Positions 11,981 to 59,669 of a stretch of 64,000 nucleotides of DNA are shown here, piece after piece (positions within the stretch are counted from its first letter, which is position 1; every line of letters starts with the position of its first letter). Made by a program: the position numbers and the translations under genes. The stretch lies in the IMG/VR virus record IMGVR_UViG_3300035497_000258, positions 1 through 64,000 of that record. One strand, 5' to 3'. The notes under the pieces were generated by a model that did no database searches, had not been told where the DNA came from, and saw only the letters and a program-made list of their open reading frames with translations. The DNA comes from a virus (Duplodnaviria > Caudoviricetes).

Positions 11981-12468
11981 GATATGCAGGAATTATACGA
12001 AATGACATAGCCTCAGCCCCAGGTATATGTTTAACTTATTTCGCTCAGGGATGTAAATCCAGATGTAAAGGATGCCATAATCCAGAAACTTGGTGCTTTA
12101 ACGAAGGTAAGGAATTTACTCAAGAGACACTTAATTCTATCATATCTGGGCTTACTGCTAATGGCATATCTCGCTCATTAGCGATTCAAGGCGGAGAACC
12201 GCTTTGTGAAGAAAATCAGTTCCTTACAAACCTCATTATAACAGAAGTAAGAAAAGTGTATCCAGATATAAAAATATATTTATGGACTGGATATTTATAT
12301 GAAGATTTATTAAATAACTTAACCACACATCTAAGACATATCTTATCTAATATAGATTATCTAATAGATGGACCTTATATTGAAGAACAACGAGATCTTA
12401 CTCTTTGGATGCGTGGTTCTCGTAATCAAAAAATTTACGACTTAAAACATCAGGAGAAGAAAGAATGA
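11977..12468 (+). CDS. nrdG: anaerobic RNR activating radical-SAM enzyme
   Basis: CKSRCKGCHN (CxxxCxxC), GGEP, DGPY, RGSRNQ; directly follows nrdD. Confidence 0.93.
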   Translation: MRYAGIIRNDIASAPGICLTYFAQGCKSRCKGCHNPETWCFNEGKEFTQETLNSIISGLTANGISRSLAIQGGEPLCEENQFLTNLIITEVRKVYPDIKIYLWTGYLYEDLLNNLTTHLRHILSNIDYLIDGPYIEEQRDLTLWMRGSRNQKIYDLKHQEKKE

Positions 12469-12812
12469 CATTATACGAATTTAATCAAGCTGGATATAGT
12501 AAAATGCCTAATTACACAGAAGAAGATATTCATAAAGCTATTTTGCGGGTTTCCAAGTTCTTATCCTCCCATGATTCTAAGTATTATATGTTTTTAAACC
12601 ATGATGAAAGATATTTTACTCTCTTTACATATAAAGAGGAATATCATCGCTATAGAAAGATGGCGGAAGAGATTCTCACACTTGCGCAGGAACTAGGTCC
12701 TATCAAAGAAATCTCCGTAGAAGATGATAGAATTGAATTCTGGGTAGGAGAAGGCGATGATTGTAAAATGTATCTATTCTTTGATTACTTCCAAGGAGTG
12801 ATTGAGATTTGA
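12465..12812 (+). CDS. hypothetical protein
   Basis: 115-aa ORF coupled to nrdG (ATGA overlap), RBS AGGAG. Confidence 0.7.
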   Translation: MTLYEFNQAGYSKMPNYTEEDIHKAILRVSKFLSSHDSKYYMFLNHDERYFTLFTYKEEYHRYRKMAEEILTLAQELGPIKEISVEDDRIEFWVGEGDDCKMYLFFDYFQGVIEI

Positions 12813-13045
12813 AAGAAGCTATTATATTTTATGAAGAATTTACTTGGGTTTCGCAAATAAGAATATTTAAAAATAATGAAATAATCGCAAAAGAATTTAT
12901 TAGATGTGAGCCAGAAGAAGTTGTAAAATATTGCTATGAGAATGGCATTACTAGACTAACTGTTCATGCACCAGATTATATTAAAAATTCTCTGGTTACA
13001 TCTATTGCAAACGCAGATTATAATAAAGAAATTGAGGTAAGATAA
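12809..13045 (+). CDS. hypothetical protein
   Basis: TTG start after AAGGAG, overlaps neighbours in the operon. Confidence 0.6.
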   Translation: MKEAIIFYEEFTWVSQIRIFKNNEIIAKEFIRCEPEEVVKYCYENGITRLTVHAPDYIKNSLVTSIANADYNKEIEVR

Positions 13046-13293
13046 TGAAATACTTGATTGAAGTTACTGAAATCTATAGAGTTGATAGTGAGAATGAAGT
13101 TGAGAATCTAATTAATGAAGCAAAACAGAGTAATATGTACACCCTTTCTAAGTATAATTGTGTTAGTAGAGAACAGAAAGCAAAAGGCGAAGTAATTGAT
13201 TCTTGGTATAAGGTTTCTCTTACTAAGAAGTTTACTGAGGAAAAAGATCCTAGCACGCAAGTTGATATTGAGTATAACGGGGAGGATTATTAA
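13045..13293 (+). CDS. hypothetical protein
   Basis: TAATG coupling, RBS GAGG. Confidence 0.7.
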   Translation: MKYLIEVTEIYRVDSENEVENLINEAKQSNMYTLSKYNCVSREQKAKGEVIDSWYKVSLTKKFTEEKDPSTQVDIEYNGEDY

Positions 13294-13829
13294 TGGTTTT
13301 TCAGAAGGTTTCAAGATTTACTGAGGTAGATATGCCGCGCCGGTCAACTGCGGAATCCGCAGGTTATGATTTCTTCGCAGCAGAGGATACTATTATTCCT
13401 TCTTTTGTTTCTCAATTCGATACTTTAAGAAAATATACGCATGACCAAGGAAAGCCTTATGAGCCTCTTACTCTTGATGAAATTGCAGAATTTACTAAAA
13501 ATTCCGATACTCGTTTTACTCTTGTTTCTACTGGAGTGAAATGTCAAATGCCTAGTAACGTACATCTCAAGCTGTTTTCCCGCAGTTCAGTGCCTTTGAA
13601 GAATTGGCTAGTGCTTGCAAATGGAGTCGGGATTGTGGATGCAGACTACTTCGGTAATAACGATAATGAGGGCGAAGTGTTCTTTCAATTCATAAACCTC
13701 GGTCCTAATCCTATTCTTATCAAGAAAGGTGATAAAATCGGACAAGGTATTTTTGAAAAATATCTAGTTACAGAAACAGATGAAACAACAGAAAAGAGAA
13801 CTGGAGGATTCGGCTCTAGTGGGAAGTAA
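13293..13829 (+). CDS. dut: trimeric dUTPase
   Basis: SAGYD, RSS, GIVDADY, GDKIGQ, RTGGFGSSG motifs. Confidence 0.93.
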   Translation: MVFQKVSRFTEVDMPRRSTAESAGYDFFAAEDTIIPSFVSQFDTLRKYTHDQGKPYEPLTLDEIAEFTKNSDTRFTLVSTGVKCQMPSNVHLKLFSRSSVPLKNWLVLANGVGIVDADYFGNNDNEGEVFFQFINLGPNPILIKKGDKIGQGIFEKYLVTETDETTEKRTGGFGSSGK

Positions 13830-14313
13830 TTTGTTATTAGCTTTAGATCAAAGCACTAAGATAACTGGATATGCAGTATTTAATGGTTAGGAACTAATCG
13901 CTCATGGTCATGTAACTTTTAGTGGAAGCGATTATATAAATAGAATTGTTTAGCTGCGGCAGTGGCTTAATGGCATTATCGACTCTGTAGATGGAAGCAT
14001 CTAGGTAGCTTTAGAAGATATTTAGCTTTAGGATGCTAAAGGAACTGGAGTTACTGGGCTTCCTACTTACAAGAAACTTGCGCACGTGCAGGGAGCTTTA
14101 ATGACTTTACTAGAAGAAAAAAGAATTTCTTACTAGTTGGTCTTAGCTTCCTCGTGGAAAAGTACGTGTGGAGTTAAAGGTAAAAGACGAGAAGAATAGA
14201 AGAAAAATGCTTAGTTATATGTTAAAAATACGTATGGCTTTGACCCTACTTCTGATGAAGCCGATGCGATTTGTTTAGGGCTTCATGTATTAAAGCACGA
14301 TTGGTCGAATTAA
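13819..14313 (+). CDS. RuvC-like Holliday junction resolvase (8 in-frame TAG=Gln; absent from ORF track)
   Basis: LLALDQSTKITGYAVF...VALEDI...SSWKS...SDEADAICLG; GTG start, ends TAA. Confidence 0.85.
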
Positions 14314-48734: not shown

Positions 48735-49954
48735 TTAACCCCCCGATGTCTCGGAGTCCGCAGGCTTTTCAACAATGCCCTTCTCGCAATCACGTATTAA
48801 ATCAACATCAAGTTCATCTTCATCAATCACCTGAATCAGAGCCAAAACTTTATTATCGCTAAATTTCGTATAAGCGGGGAAAGCATCAACCACAAAGTTA
48901 AAAGTAGAAGGATCACCGCTAGAAGCCATACTAAATGTAAAGTTAGACTGGACTTTACCATTAGGAATAATAAACTCAGCAGGCATATCTCTACCATCGC
49001 TCTCGCGTCTAAACAAGGTATCGCCTTCAATGTAGAAGTTGCCAGAGAAACTATCAGCAGTAATTTCCATCTACAGCGCACCACTCTTTTTTGCAACATA
49101 ATAATCAACTAAAATAATCTTATTAGCTTTAATCTTAGAACAAGTAATTGTAGTATTACCATTACTATAAGTTACTGCTGTAGGTACACAAGGTTCATCA
49201 GTAATATAACCATTATCATCAAGAACCATAATATACATATCCGCATTTTCATTATAATTATCACCAGCAGTTAAATTATTACAAGCGGTAATATGTTCAA
49301 GAGTAATAGTACCATCAACACTTGCTTTAATTTGAGAAGTAGAATGAACATAAACGGGAGCCTCATCTTTAGCAGAAATTAGTCTTGCACCAGATAAAAT
49401 GGAAAATCCTTCAGGAGTTAGTAAAGCATCTTCCATATTAAAAGTAAGAGTTTTCTCGCCGTCCCAAGCAATTAAGCGCGTGTTACCTCGACCCATTATT
49501 ATTCCAATAAGCTCGCTACAGCTTATTGCGTTCTCTTATGAACTGCTATATCTTTATATATACATATAGATTAGACTATATCTTTTTCTCTTATAGAGAA
49601 ATCTTCCATTTCGACCGCCAATCACTTGCGGCCTACGTCTTTCGACTAGTCGTTGAACCTTACTTGAATTCTATATCTTTAGTAAGATATTCAAGCCTTG
49701 GCTGCTGATTGCCTAGTGAGGATTTTTACTAGGTTTTCCAGCAATTAGAAAGATTTGCTAATTCTTATCACTAAGAATAGGGGCAATCATTTACCCTGGG
49801 CATAAACTGTGGTAACAGCACCTTCTAAGCTAGAAGTTTTTAAAGAATCAAAATAAATAACAGGCTCATTCTTTAAGAATTCTCTTGAACCAAGTCTCAT
49901 TCTGCTACGCGCACGGAAAACAACATTGCAAATCTCGCGCGATCCAAACCGCAT
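48735..49954 (-). CDS. major tail (tube) protein, exons 49954-49793 and 49493-48735 (306 aa, 1 TAG)
   Basis: MRFGSREIC...TVYAQG|GRGNTRLIAWDGEK...FSMASSGDPSTF; position between neck genes and TMP. Confidence 0.8.
49494..49792 (-). ncRNA. ORF-less group I intron (299 nt) in major tail gene
   Basis: P1 GGGT/GCCC; GTTCAACGACTA, AAGATATAGTC; terminal G. Confidence 0.88.
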
Positions 49955-56700: not shown

Positions 56701-56719
56701 CGTCAATCCCTCCTTTCAA

Positions 56720-58306
56720 TTAGCTCATTGCTTCACGATTCTGCAATGTTTTATCAGACTTCTCGTCGTCAGCTTTCTCCGGCCGCCCCACTTCATTCTC
56801 ACTACTATTGTTTTTAGAGGTTGAAGAAGAATGTGCTGCTTGCTACTATTGCTGTAACACATTACTATTCATAGTATTACTAGACATAGGCGGCAGCATG
56901 ATTTCAGACAGATGGAGAATTTCATTCTCAAAATGAGCAGTAGCGATAATACTAGATTGAGAGTGACCTAAAGCTATCTGCGGCAACATCTTAGAATAAC
57001 CAATCTAGGTTTGCTCTTTATACATTTTAGCTATATCTTTATAATTATAAATCGTAGTTTCAAGAATCTCGATTCTAAAATTATATTGAGTTTTATCAAA
57101 ACGCTTAATAATTGTATTTAAAAGCATCTCAAATTGATATACTAAATCTCGCATAGTAGCTTCATCGTTTAAGATAGATTTTTCAAGAGCTGTATTACCT
57201 TCGGTATTAAACAAATTCTGTGAAACACCTAAATTATTATACACTGTTCTTTCTACTCTTTGCAAATCATCGCTGGTTGCAGTCGAGTTATCATCCTGCA
57301 TATCAGCTACTTCTGTATCAGCAAAAGTAGTAAGAACATCAACACCTACTGCTCTCTTCAACATAGTAACTGCATTATTGTGCAGATCTCGAGCTTCATC
57401 GAGGTCAAAGACCAAGTCTCCATTTTTGTCAATCGGCAGCTTTTGGATAACTATTTTCAAGAGCTACTGCATGGTCTTTTTACGGTCGAGTTCTTGTGCT
57501 TCGTCTAAGTCAATGATAGAAGGAATAGCTTGAATGAGAGGCGGAAAATCACTATCATTCAAGTTAAATTTAACTCCAACACCAGGATCAAGCATAAACC
57601 AGCCATAATCATCACCGACATCTTGCTTTAGTTTTCCCTCTTTAAACTTTATATAAGCTTTTTGTAATTCTTTGGGGAAAAGAGACAAGACTTTTAGACG
57701 ATACTAAACATTAGAGAAACAGGAGTCAAAGAATTGGAGATTAACCTCTACGATATCCTATCCATTTTTCTTAAATCTACTTCTACAATAACGTGCGGGA
57801 AGCTGCTAAACCTAGAAGCTACTGCCCTCGTCAACTAGATATCCGTAATAAACACCATCTTTTACTACTGCTAAAGCTATATCGCCAAGAACCTTCTTGA
57901 CGTTAGAATCATCAAAGTAAAATAAAACTTTAGTATAATCTTTAAGTAATTTACTATCATTAGCTTTATCTTTTGCAAATGGCGTTACGTGCCAATCGTA
58001 TCTATAAAGAAAAGCAAGATATTTACAAATTCGTTGATATATTCCGCTAGATTCATAATAGTAATTTGATATTTCTCTTAGAGTATTAATATCTTTGCGC
58101 TTGATAGTATTAAGGATAAAATTTTTATCACCATACTAGCGGTGTGCTTTCTTGAAGCTTCCAATATTTACAACCGCGTCTTCAAGCTTCTTCACACCTA
58201 TACGAACCGCATTATTCTCGGTAGGCACTTCATCTTCTAAAGAATATTGTACTCTACCAAACATATCAAATCCTTTATCATGGATCTCTTCTTGTCTACT
58301 TGCCAA
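56720..58306 (-). CDS. portal protein (528 aa, TAG read-through)
   Basis: TTG after AAGGAGGTG; track ORFs fuse; C-terminal GRPEK motif; position after terminase. Confidence 0.8.
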
Positions 58307-58318
58307 TATCTCACCTCC

Positions 58319-58679
58319 TTAATATCCAGCTTTTTTGAATATATAATCGTAGTTTACTCGTTCTTCTTCCCAATAAGGAATTTCAATTAGTTTTATATTA
58401 TGTTCAGCGCAATAAAGGCGTTTCTTTTCATCATTATACTTTTGTTGATATAAACCTTTAGTGCCGCCAAATTTACTAACTGCTTGATAATGTTGTTTAC
58501 CTTGATATTCAATTAGAAAATCAATACGTCCATCATCATCGAAAATGGCGAAGTCAAAGCTATCGAAGAGGATTACCATTAGTACTCAATAAATCAGGAA
58601 ATTCATATTCTTCTTGAAAGTTAATTTCATTAGCTTCTAAAATACGATAGATTCTAATTTCACCTCTGCTAGCCCTCAA
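58319..58679 (-). CDS. Vsr/DUF559-like PD-(D/E)xK endonuclease interrupted by a 4-nt TAGC insert (segments 58679-58563, 58558-58319)
   Basis: MRASRGE...EYEFPDL...PLR|FDFAIF...IEYQGKQHY...ND..KR.YC...LIEIPYW; TTG after GGAGGTG. Confidence 0.8.
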
Positions 58680-59582
58680 TTACACCACCTCCTCATAAAA
58701 ACACCACTTTAATTTTTCTCCAGTTTCTGGGTGAATACCAGCTGTTTCTTTTTTACCTAAGCAACAAGCTTTAATGCTTTTTCCAGTATCGAATAGACTA
58801 GACCATTTAGCAGCAGAAAGCATAGAATTAAAGATCTAATTAGTATTTATACAAATAACCTTTATACTACGTTTATCTTTATACTATCTTGTGTCTATAT
58901 TTTCTACATCGTTAATATAAATCCAATGTAACGGTATCCCAGATTCAGGATGTTTGCCAGAGCTTTTTCGCTCACCCCTGCAGCATTGCCCTATTCCAGA
59001 AACACTTTTAAGACCGCACCAATTAGCGGCCTCTTTTATTGTTGTAAAAATTTTTCCAGTCTCTAAATTTTTAACAATTTTACTATTTGGATTTTTATCT
59101 CCTTGACATTCTTTAATGCGTTTCTCTCTTTTAATAGGATCATTCCAGAAATTTTTTACTCCTCGCTATAAATTTTCTTCAGCTTTTTGAGCGAATTCTT
59201 TATTAGACCAAGATTTCTTTCTAGCCTCAGAGAAGCTTTTACTCATTTTCGCTTTATATTCTGGATTTTTCCACATCTATTCCATATAATTATTTCCACC
59301 AGGAGTTAAATTATATCCTTTATCAGAGTTAAAACTATCATAATAAGCAATCCAATAAACTTCTCGTTCGTTGGCTTCTTGAAAAGTTAAATTATCTTCA
59401 ATAATTTCATGCGAAAAATTTTCCCATCCATACTTCTAAATTGCTTTCCAAAATAAAGTGCATCCTTTATAATAAATACCATTACAGCTAAATCGCTATT
59501 TAATATTTTGTGTCTAGCCTATATAGATTTTCCCGTTAGTTAAATTAGTATGTTTATATATACAATATTTCTTTTCTTCCAT
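58680..59582 (-). CDS. free-standing GIY-YIG homing endonuclease (300 aa, TAG read-through; absent from track)
   Basis: YCIYKHTNLTNGKIYIG(TAG)T...GYNLTPGG; C-terminal NUMOD1-like repeats. Confidence 0.85.
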
Positions 59583-59669
59583 AAGGATTTATACCTCTAT
59601 TTTCTTATAAAGTTCTCTTTATTAGTTATAAAAAATCAACTAATTGTATTAAATAAATCTGTCCTAGTC

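Follow-up and report, generated by a model that had tools for sequence, protein, structure and literature searches.

A TAGC insert in a phage nuclease gene as a candidate site of very short translational bypassing

To our knowledge, efficient programmed bypassing has been demonstrated at the bench essentially only for gene 60 of phage T4 and its homologues, with a Streptomyces phage and a yeast mitochondrion as further cases. The locus described here lies in the IMG/VR virus record IMGVR_UViG_3300035497_000258 (Duplodnaviria; Caudoviricetes), of which positions 1 to 64,000 were analysed as a whole and are referred to below as the window. On the minus strand of the window, a nuclease gene between the genes for terminase and portal is broken by the four nucleotides TAGC, and a second TAGC breaks dnaE on the plus strand. 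Among recoding events at stop codons, prfB, the gene for RF2, is read by a programmed +1 frameshift at CUU UGA C, and Weiss et al. reportedly described unprogrammed hops and shifts at stop codons in 1987. The mitochondrial 'byp' elements of yeast span tens of nucleotides and depend on unassigned sense codons. For gene 60, which PMC5462505 and PMC6551183 also treat, the bypass gap is 50 nucleotides (nt) long, or 20 nt in one Aeromonas clade, and the gap of the gene 60 cassette is described as protecting against the element's own endonuclease, MobA (10.1101/2022.08.31.505936). Another paper proposes bypassing of 10-nt UUA-led inserts in the terminase gene of Streptomyces phage phiHau3 and names the 'byp' elements of Magnusiomyces capitatus mitochondria as a case of bypassing (PMC10732093). 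In E. coli lacking RF1, an unassigned UAG after CAC is reported to lead to skips of -3 to +19 nt (PMC6207430).

We propose, with moderate confidence, that the TAGC in the nuclease gene may be a programmed coding gap of 4 nt that is skipped by the ribosome. According to this scenario, the ribosome would translate 39 nuclease codons and halt at UAG in the A site while the P site holds CGA and its Arg-tRNA. This peptidyl-tRNA would then detach from CGA, the mRNA would move by four bases, and decoding would restart at UUU, giving the consensus nuclease of 118 amino acids (aa) with the sequence ...PLR-FDF....

The interrupted nuclease gene

The minus strand of the nuclease gene reads AAT CCT CTT CGA [TAGC] TTT GAC TTC GCC. 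From a TTG start (58679-58677), preceded by the Shine-Dalgarno sequence GGAGGTG (58686-58692, minus strand) within the 3' end of the upstream GIY-YIG open reading frame (ORF), the first part of the gene runs for 39 codons (TTG plus 38; 58563-58679) and ends with CCT CTT CGA (Pro-Leu-Arg), CGA (58565-58563) being the proposed take-off codon. The insert (58562-58559) consists of TAG (58562-58560) and an extra C (58559). The second part (58558-58319), in the +1 frame, comprises 79 codons (FDFAIFDDDG...KKAGY) and TAA and holds the family-invariant residues D41, E56, Q58 and H62. When TAGC is skipped, 118 codons are left, and the joined halves match PHROG 9084, 'homing endonuclease', over residues 3-110 (4e-29). 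A preliminary description of the sequence had stated that removing TAGC joins PLR to FDF in a 118-aa nuclease and that frame-0 read-through runs into a stop. The removal indeed restores the family consensus, and read-through (TAG CTT TGA) ends at the TGA in 58556-58554. An internal ATG at 58579 begins an 86-aa ORF that shares the frame of the second part; it is not conserved in the related locus L030 and was rejected as the true start.

The structure of an uninterrupted homologue was modelled with a 24-sequence alignment. The model has a predicted local distance difference test score of 95 and the elements H-E-E-E-H-E, an alpha-beta-beta-beta-alpha-beta core, and the junction between R39 and F40 falls within the model strand 37-45, which bears the invariant D41. 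F40, D41 and E56 do not vary across the 24 aligned homologues, and R39 hardly varies. The top Foldseek matches were all restriction-endonuclease-like, including I-Bth0305I (3r3p_A; probability 0.99, TM 0.58/0.69) and Vsr (1cw0_A; probability 0.96), with a best E-value of 5e-3, so that none reached E 0.001. Pfam DUF2726 matched one homologue above its cut-off (27.0 versus 24.7), and the window protein scored below it (16.8). A sequence search of the PDB with the uninterrupted nuclease returned a single match at chance level (E 0.84). As modelled, the nuclease is thus a PD-(D/E)xK protein with a predicted restriction-endonuclease-like fold of the Vsr or I-Bth0305I kind.

The insert recurs in other assemblies. 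The break CGA-TAGC-TTT was found in two of 80 IMG/VR nuclease loci (L030 and L031), in 12 of 16 metagenome stretches matched by a 21-nt pattern (the other four being chance matches), and in nine of 36 IMG/VR stretches matched by a pattern in which the three upstream codons were degenerate (the other 27 being unrelated). Both halves of the nuclease are intact in every copy, and the 14 distinct nuclease genes with an insert that were tallied are all free of a second lesion. By comparison, 76 of the 80 loci read ...PLRFDF... without a break, and the 52 unique uninterrupted 118-aa proteins align without gaps. The relative G002, a 136-kb IMG/VR contig that for most of its length shares 93-97% identity with the window, has neither TAGC insert, and in its high-identity alignments with the window the two inserts were judged to be the sole frame-breaking indels in protein-coding sequence.

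In 55 pairs drawn from 11 distinct insert-bearing genes, the proportion of non-synonymous differences (pN) was far below that of synonymous differences (pS) in both halves, with pN/pS of about 0.05-0.15. The C-terminal halves of L201 and L204 differ by 23 synonymous and 7 non-synonymous changes and those of L203 and L207 by 10 and 0, respectively, and the N-terminal halves of L198 and L203 give pS 0.19 and pN 0.023. The preliminary description had named relaxed selection in the downstream half as the sign of a simple pseudogene. That comparison was run and revealed no relaxation; since divergence is mostly synonymous in both halves, the pseudogene test fails to refute a functional gene, and the pseudogene reading is not supported. 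Recurrence and purifying selection in both halves together indicate that the inserts are real, non-random and no part of a decaying gene, and the occurrence of the same insert across assemblies agrees with the earlier view that two identical inserts are hard to explain as random errors. On these comparisons, the nuclease insert is a conserved, selected feature.

An assembly artefact, or the removal or disregard of four bases before translation by RNA editing or processing or through DNA heterogeneity, is an extremely unlikely account of the break: the identical insert is present in assemblies from many projects, some of high coverage (one contig is labelled cov 132), and we know of no RNA process that precisely excises 4-8 nt. 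All inserts but one begin with a stop codon, and most end with a triplet able to re-pair, an arrangement that makes sense only at the ribosome. Nor is TAGC a target-site duplication, as the preliminary description had already judged.

Each of the two inserts in the window marks the 3' edge of a tract with 53-81% identity to G002; on the 3' side, identity is mostly 93-100%. At the nuclease the 5' side is 70-81% and the 3' side 97-100% identical, and the diverged tract extends into a GIY-YIG gene missing from G002; at dnaE the first 3' comparison interval, which contains the insert, has 88% identity. For other pairs, the relatives are too distant for this comparison, and only G003 versus G008 exhibits a weaker form of the boundary. 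This setting bears on a reading in which no full-length protein is made: in a dispensable homing-endonuclease gene, the insert would be a scar of a selfish or protective kind, blocking for instance the target of a homing endonuclease, and the halves would look intact because gene conversion spreads the insert into live genes. The sharp mosaic boundary, the adjoining GIY-YIG gene that G002 is without, the frequent decay of homing-endonuclease genes and the lack of a stimulatory structure at the nuclease site (see below) would all suit a scar. Such a reading is nevertheless rather improbable, considering that the 14 insert-bearing genes carry no second lesion, that divergence within insert-bearing clades is mostly synonymous, and that like inserts break dnaE and a helicase Walker A motif in genes that are presumed essential and are otherwise intact.

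Sister inserts and the signals around them

The dnaE gene of the window (plus strand) starts with TTG followed by 12 codons (MKTRVNYPGSLHN; 1054-1092), the last of which, AAT (1090-1092), is the proposed take-off codon. The second TAGC (1093-1096), likewise missing from G002, splits the HxH motif of the PHP domain between SLHN and HTGYS, 13 codons into the gene, and the continuation (1097-2322) encodes the PHP domain and the beginning of the pol III alpha domain. In Pfam, the downstream ORF matches PHP no earlier than from profile position 17, and reading through the TAG would give QPYWIQ and a stop. An 8-base-pair (bp) hairpin is predicted at 1055-1088, in which TGAAGACT (1055-1062) pairs with AGTCTTCA (1081-1088), ending 4 nt 5' of the TAG. 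Further downstream, the continuation runs to a 1416-nt insertion relative to G002 (2323-3738, plus strand), which contains a GIY-YIG ORF (2562-3638) with two in-frame TAG codons and on which Rfam found no intron model at E up to 0.1; the dnaE of G002 has an insertion of about 965 nt located 76 nt further on, at window positions 3814-3819.

The preliminary description had noted that both TAGC-bearing genes have a GGAGGTG-N6-TTG start and a TCTTC shortly upstream of the insert. The two genes do hold the only two such starts in the window (0.05 expected; two were reached in 0 of 100 shuffles), but because the insert-bearing relatives start with ATG instead, this start is probably incidental to the inserts. 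TCTTC is present 2 nt upstream of the insert in the nuclease gene and 5 nt upstream in dnaE, where it belongs to a hairpin arm, and did not stand as a shared signal; pattern searches returned no match to TCTTC-N10-TAGC and one, unrelated, to TCTTC-N3-TAGC.

Ten related contigs were taken whole and scanned for inserts backed by uninterrupted homologues. Twenty-four related dnaE loci were found, 22 of them with a readable 5' end, of which seven have an insert at the same motif and 15 do not. The dnaE inserts are CAT[TAGTTCAA]AAC in L006, CAT[TAGTGCAA]AAT in L008-L011 and CAC[TAGAT]ACT in L020 and L021, next to AAT[TAGC]CAT in the window. In the nuclease, the break takes the form CGA[TAGCCGC]TTT in L036, CTG[TAGCCTC]AGA in L045 and, without a leading stop, CGA[TCGT]TTT TGA C on the minus strand of G010, whose nuclease gene also has a sense TAG. 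For the G010 insert, decoding could take either of two routes, a hop from CGA to CGT or a slip of +1 at UUU UGA C. Two TAA-led inserts split the Walker A motif (SGYA-GxGKS) of a RecD-like helicase on the plus strand, an 8-nt insert GCT[TAAAAGCT]GGT in G005 (L138-L145, near 65950), with GCT as both take-off and landing codon, and a 5-nt insert GCT[TAACT]GGG in G010 (L175-L183, near 129656). A calcineurin-like metallophosphoesterase of G006 (L147, about 9101-9107) carries CAT[TAGCTAT]TTC after codon 12, within the DxH motif (SDWH-FNHD), and its counterparts in G002, G005 and G009 are uninterrupted. The inserts are thus 4, 5, 7 or 8 nt long, and a leading in-frame stop is found in 10 of 11 insert types from four gene families; at each site the original motif is regained only by exact removal of the insert. 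A typical site would consist of a take-off codon, a stop codon and one to five further bases, often ending in a re-pairing triplet.

An unbiased chaining scan of 11 genomes for any frame-breaking insert yielded 62 clusters. All six sites with at least five homologues are of this kind, and in five of the six the stop stands exactly at the first inserted base. Fifty-five clusters with one to three subjects (close relatives, intergenic DNA and gene boundaries) were set aside, and the scan needed two 5-mer seeds on each side, so that short N-terminal sites were missed. A tblastn scan for stop-led junctions was too noisy before strict flank-identity filters were applied, and a 4-mer junction scan left 228 site and length combinations with at least 6 of 12 identities on both sides, which were sorted by eye on the number of subjects and the sense of the motif.

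The sister sites bear directly on a +1 frameshift at CGA-UAG, where, CGA occupying the P site and UAG being slow to decode in the A site, an incoming Ser-tRNA would pair with the overlapping AGC, or four bases would be read in one step, yielding a 119-aa protein with ...PLR-S-FDF.... For a 4-nt insert a shift of +1 is enough, CGA always precedes the insert, the relative G002 encodes tRNA-Ser(GCU), and the G010 sequence CGA TCG TTT TGA C would likewise lead to PLR-S-FDF through a slip at UUU-UGA. However, such a shift does not explain the sister inserts of 5 and 8 nt and would add two residues in L036 and L045, while HxH of DnaE would become HxxH and the extra residue in the nuclease is present at that position in no uninterrupted homologue among the loci and unique proteins counted above. 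For the nuclease site, we therefore consider a frameshift unlikely. Given the mixed insert lengths, a single frameshift or four-base decoding is ruled out, and as either would add residues within HxH, GxxGxGKS, DxH and RFDF, only exact omission fits. A tRNA with an 8-nt anticodon loop (GCUA), which the preliminary description had suggested looking for, is unlikely in view of these lengths, and ARAGORN reported no four-base anticodon in the ten related genomes or the window. Nothing pointed to a guide RNA, also suggested there, although no search aimed at guide RNAs was made. We infer from the sequences that the gap is removed by the ribosome rather than by a process at the RNA or DNA level, and the same holds for the exact product and for the efficiency of the step.

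The three codons preceding the nuclease gap do not vary in nucleotide sequence. CCT CTT CGA precedes TAGC in every TAGC-type nuclease gene, including nine of the nine found with those codons degenerate in the search, and CGA also precedes the G010 variant. In the 76 uninterrupted loci, CGA encodes that Arg in four and CCTCTTCGA occurs in one. CGA is decoded via an inosine-adenine wobble pair, which plausibly favours take-off. In the pairs GCT/GCT, CGA/CGC, CGA/CGT, CTG/CTC and CAT/CAA, the landing triplet has at least its first two bases in common with the take-off codon, and in the 4-5-nt gaps and TAGCTAT the last triplet pairs the take-off tRNA at two positions. The tetramer alone is not the signal, because 44 of the 277 in-frame TAG codons of the late genes are followed by C without a change of frame, in line with the earlier remark that TAG-C occurs elsewhere in frame.

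RNA structure may contribute at the sister sites. Both insert-bearing helicase genes have a perfect hairpin of 13-15 bp ending 2 nt 5' of the stop (-26 and -22 kcal/mol; z -6.1 and -3.6, respectively); the two hairpins differ by one compensatory change from C-G to U-A, and the three uninterrupted homologues form at most 6 bp. All six insert-bearing dnaE loci examined, of four types, have 8-9-bp stems ending 3-4 nt 5' of the TAG, and the phosphoesterase gene of G006 has an 8-bp stem ending 4 nt 5' of the TAG. The hairpins at the dnaE and phosphoesterase sites are suggestive as stimulators, and by folding again behind the ribosome a hairpin could draw the mRNA forward. The dnaE codons for NLRLRD, about 12-40 nt 3' of the insert site, fold into a further hairpin (AATCTTCG...CGAGATT) in insert-bearing and uninterrupted genes alike; this hairpin is thus non-discriminating and could help in setting the landing site. 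At the nuclease, a long-range pairing of GAAGA with UCUUC across a 39-nt loop was tried and rejected, as it lacks covariation.

Several observations weigh against bypassing as the explanation of the nuclease insert. The landing triplet AGC pairs Arg-tRNA at only two of three positions. No distinguishing structure was found at the nuclease site, where 5' stems are 5-7 bp in the insert-bearing genes versus 4-11 bp in 48 uninterrupted ones, and alifold on 11 nuclease sequences gave about -2 to -6 kcal/mol with neither covariation nor a conserved fold. Hairpins of similar length to those of the insert-bearing dnaE genes are found in three of ten uninterrupted homologues. The window's dnaE variant with TAGC was found in no other assembly, a degenerate pattern matching 12 IMG/VR stretches, none of them dnaE, and an exact 23-mer matching no metagenome contig. 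The argument from selection presumes that the insert is older than the divergence of the insert-bearing genes. Finally, the TAGC-type genes L198, L203, L206, L207 and L208 have a sense TAG 18-21 codons downstream of the gap, so that UAG would have to be hopped once and read as Gln elsewhere in the same mRNA.

Genetic code, phage setting and possible role

The replication genes on the plus strand (about 1-14000) contain no TAG in 3912 codons and follow the standard code. The late genes on the minus strand (15000-64000) are open only with TAG as a sense codon, with 277 in-frame TAG in 13197 codons of 30 ORFs, and TAG is their commonest apparent Gln codon (277 TAG, 234 CAA and 99 CAG). None of the 43 ORFs of the window ends with TAG, TAG aligns with Gln in the nuclease homologues, and ORFs are much longer when TAG is read as sense, as in TAG-to-Gln recoding (genetic code 15). 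A tRNA with anticodon CUA is present in the relatives G002, G006 and G009, and a tRNA scan of the window found none within it. G002, G006, G009 and G010 are TAG-recoded like the window, and G003, G004, G005, G007, G008 and G011 look standard. At L201 and L204, a TAGC-type nuclease gene lies beside portal and capsid genes whose frames stay intact with the standard code; stop-led gaps occur under both the TAG-recoded and the standard code.

Recoding invites the alternative that a suppressor tRNA reads the UAG as Gln and Leu-tRNA then slips by +1 at CUU UGA C, as in prfB, which would produce ...PLR-QL-DFAIF... and limit expression to the late, suppressor-rich phase. The window is TAG-recoded with its nuclease gene in the late module, TAG CTT TGA C holds the shift motif of prfB, some TAGC-type genes have sense TAG codons, and both inserts directly before TTTGA end in C or T, leaving CUU or UUU before UGA. 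The same TAGC insert in the standard-code phages of L201 and L204, however, means that TAG suppression is not the general route, although it could still act in the window. Moreover, in many copies UGA is followed by T, no Shine-Dalgarno-like stimulator is found in the 15 nt upstream, the invariance of CCT CTT CGA is not explained, the invariant F40 would be replaced, and at the dnaE TAGC the mechanism fails, with read-through soon reaching the stop described above. We thus regard suppression followed by a slip as very unlikely.

Directly upstream of the nuclease gene lies the ORF of a GIY-YIG homing endonuclease (58680-59582, minus strand), 300 aa long with TAG as Gln and with seven in-frame TAG codons; it is part of about 950 nt (58668-59617, minus strand) between the terminase exons and the nuclease gene that G002 lacks. 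Rfam detected four group I introns on the minus strand (75-108 bits), three in the terminase region and a fourth between late ORFs (60248-60475, 60841-61175, 61810-62134 and 49552-49802). At 56706-56722 (minus strand), the portal stop TAA and the start region of the next gene are conserved and were read as an ordinary gene boundary; the counterpart in L036 is one continuous frame with TAG codons and was hence flagged by the scan. Positions 72976-80281 of G002 (L123 and L124) carry 11-12 tRNA genes, among them the CUA suppressor, Ser-GCU, Leu-UAG and an unusual Phe-AAA, several being of atypical length. No near-identical phage record was found in INPHARED, where the nearest cultured DnaE relatives are those of Enterocloster phages, with 41% identity. 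The hosts are probably Firmicutes.

A likely role of the gap would be to hold the level of a potentially harmful nuclease low, to disrupt a homing-endonuclease target, or to do both. More tentatively, and with some doubt, we suggest that the gaps may form a family of micro-gaps of 4-8 nt in the most conserved catalytic motifs of at least four enzyme families of this group of gut Firmicutes phages, namely HxH of DnaE, Walker A of the helicase, DxH of the metallophosphoesterase and the PD-(D/E)xK nuclease. They would be read by very short hops, driven by hairpins at some sites, and would spread with homing endonucleases or protect against them. In TAG-recoded members they would be on early, while UAG is unread, and off once the suppressor tRNA appears, the mirror image of in-frame TAG. 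If this is true, short hops would be a recurrent and selected way to read genes, and the split gene calls for dnaE, helicase and nuclease in such phages would be explained. The sites would further offer a minimal system for take-off and landing, with 4 nt and no obvious structure at the nuclease versus hairpins of 13-15 bp at the helicase, and they would tie recoding to the conflict of phages with homing endonucleases and, where TAG is recoded, to when genes are expressed.

Comparison with described recoding systems

No published account of stop-led micro-gaps in these phages came up in full-text literature searches or in the main texts of the Borges preprint and the phAss-1 paper. The prfB frameshift is comparable in that CUU UGA C comes into frame if the window TAG is read through, and differs in that the nuclease site lacks a Shine-Dalgarno-like stimulator and would require prior amber suppression, leaving the 5- or 8-nt sister sites and the standard-code phages unexplained. 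The skips in RF1-less E. coli likewise involve ribosomes stalled at UAG that omit a few bases, and the pair CAC-UAG is that of one dnaE variant; whereas those skips are low-level errors in artificial constructs, the present sites are fixed, conserved and located in catalytic motifs of natural genes.

The 'byp' elements resemble the present gaps as many short non-coding inserts in protein genes that ribosomes skip, and they act as mobile insertions; they are longer, yeast-mitochondrial and dependent on unassigned sense codons. The work on phiHau3 describes short inserts that open with a slow codon and break an essential phage gene, in which standard decoding soon meets a stop, and it proposes a 5' stem-loop as a stimulator and regulation through the availability of a decoding factor. 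The gaps described here differ in their leading stop (TAG or TAA), their length of 4-8 nt, their presence in at least four gene families and their occurrence in both TAG-recoded and standard-code phages.

The gaps also resemble that of gene 60. In both, a stop directly follows the take-off codon and a conserved enzyme gene is interrupted by non-coding bases. A landing codon able to re-pair comes next, more fully at several sister sites than at the nuclease, where two of three positions match; a 5' mRNA hairpin is found (here at the sister sites), and homing-endonuclease genes and mosaic tracts lie alongside. By analogy, the nuclease gap may resemble the gene 60 cassette in its setting of protection against an endonuclease, a role in keeping the nuclease level low being equally possible. 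Unlike gene 60, the present sites have no identified take-off stem-loop or nascent-peptide signal, the nascent chain at the dnaE and phosphoesterase sites would have only 12-13 residues, the phages probably infect Firmicutes, and the sequences are not homologous to the gene 60 cassette. The gaps are also only 4-8 nt long, and in those of 4-5 nt the landing triplet shares bases with the stop codon. Judged from its sequence, the nuclease gap would most likely be an unusually short form of the rare decoding trick of which gene 60 is the best-established example.

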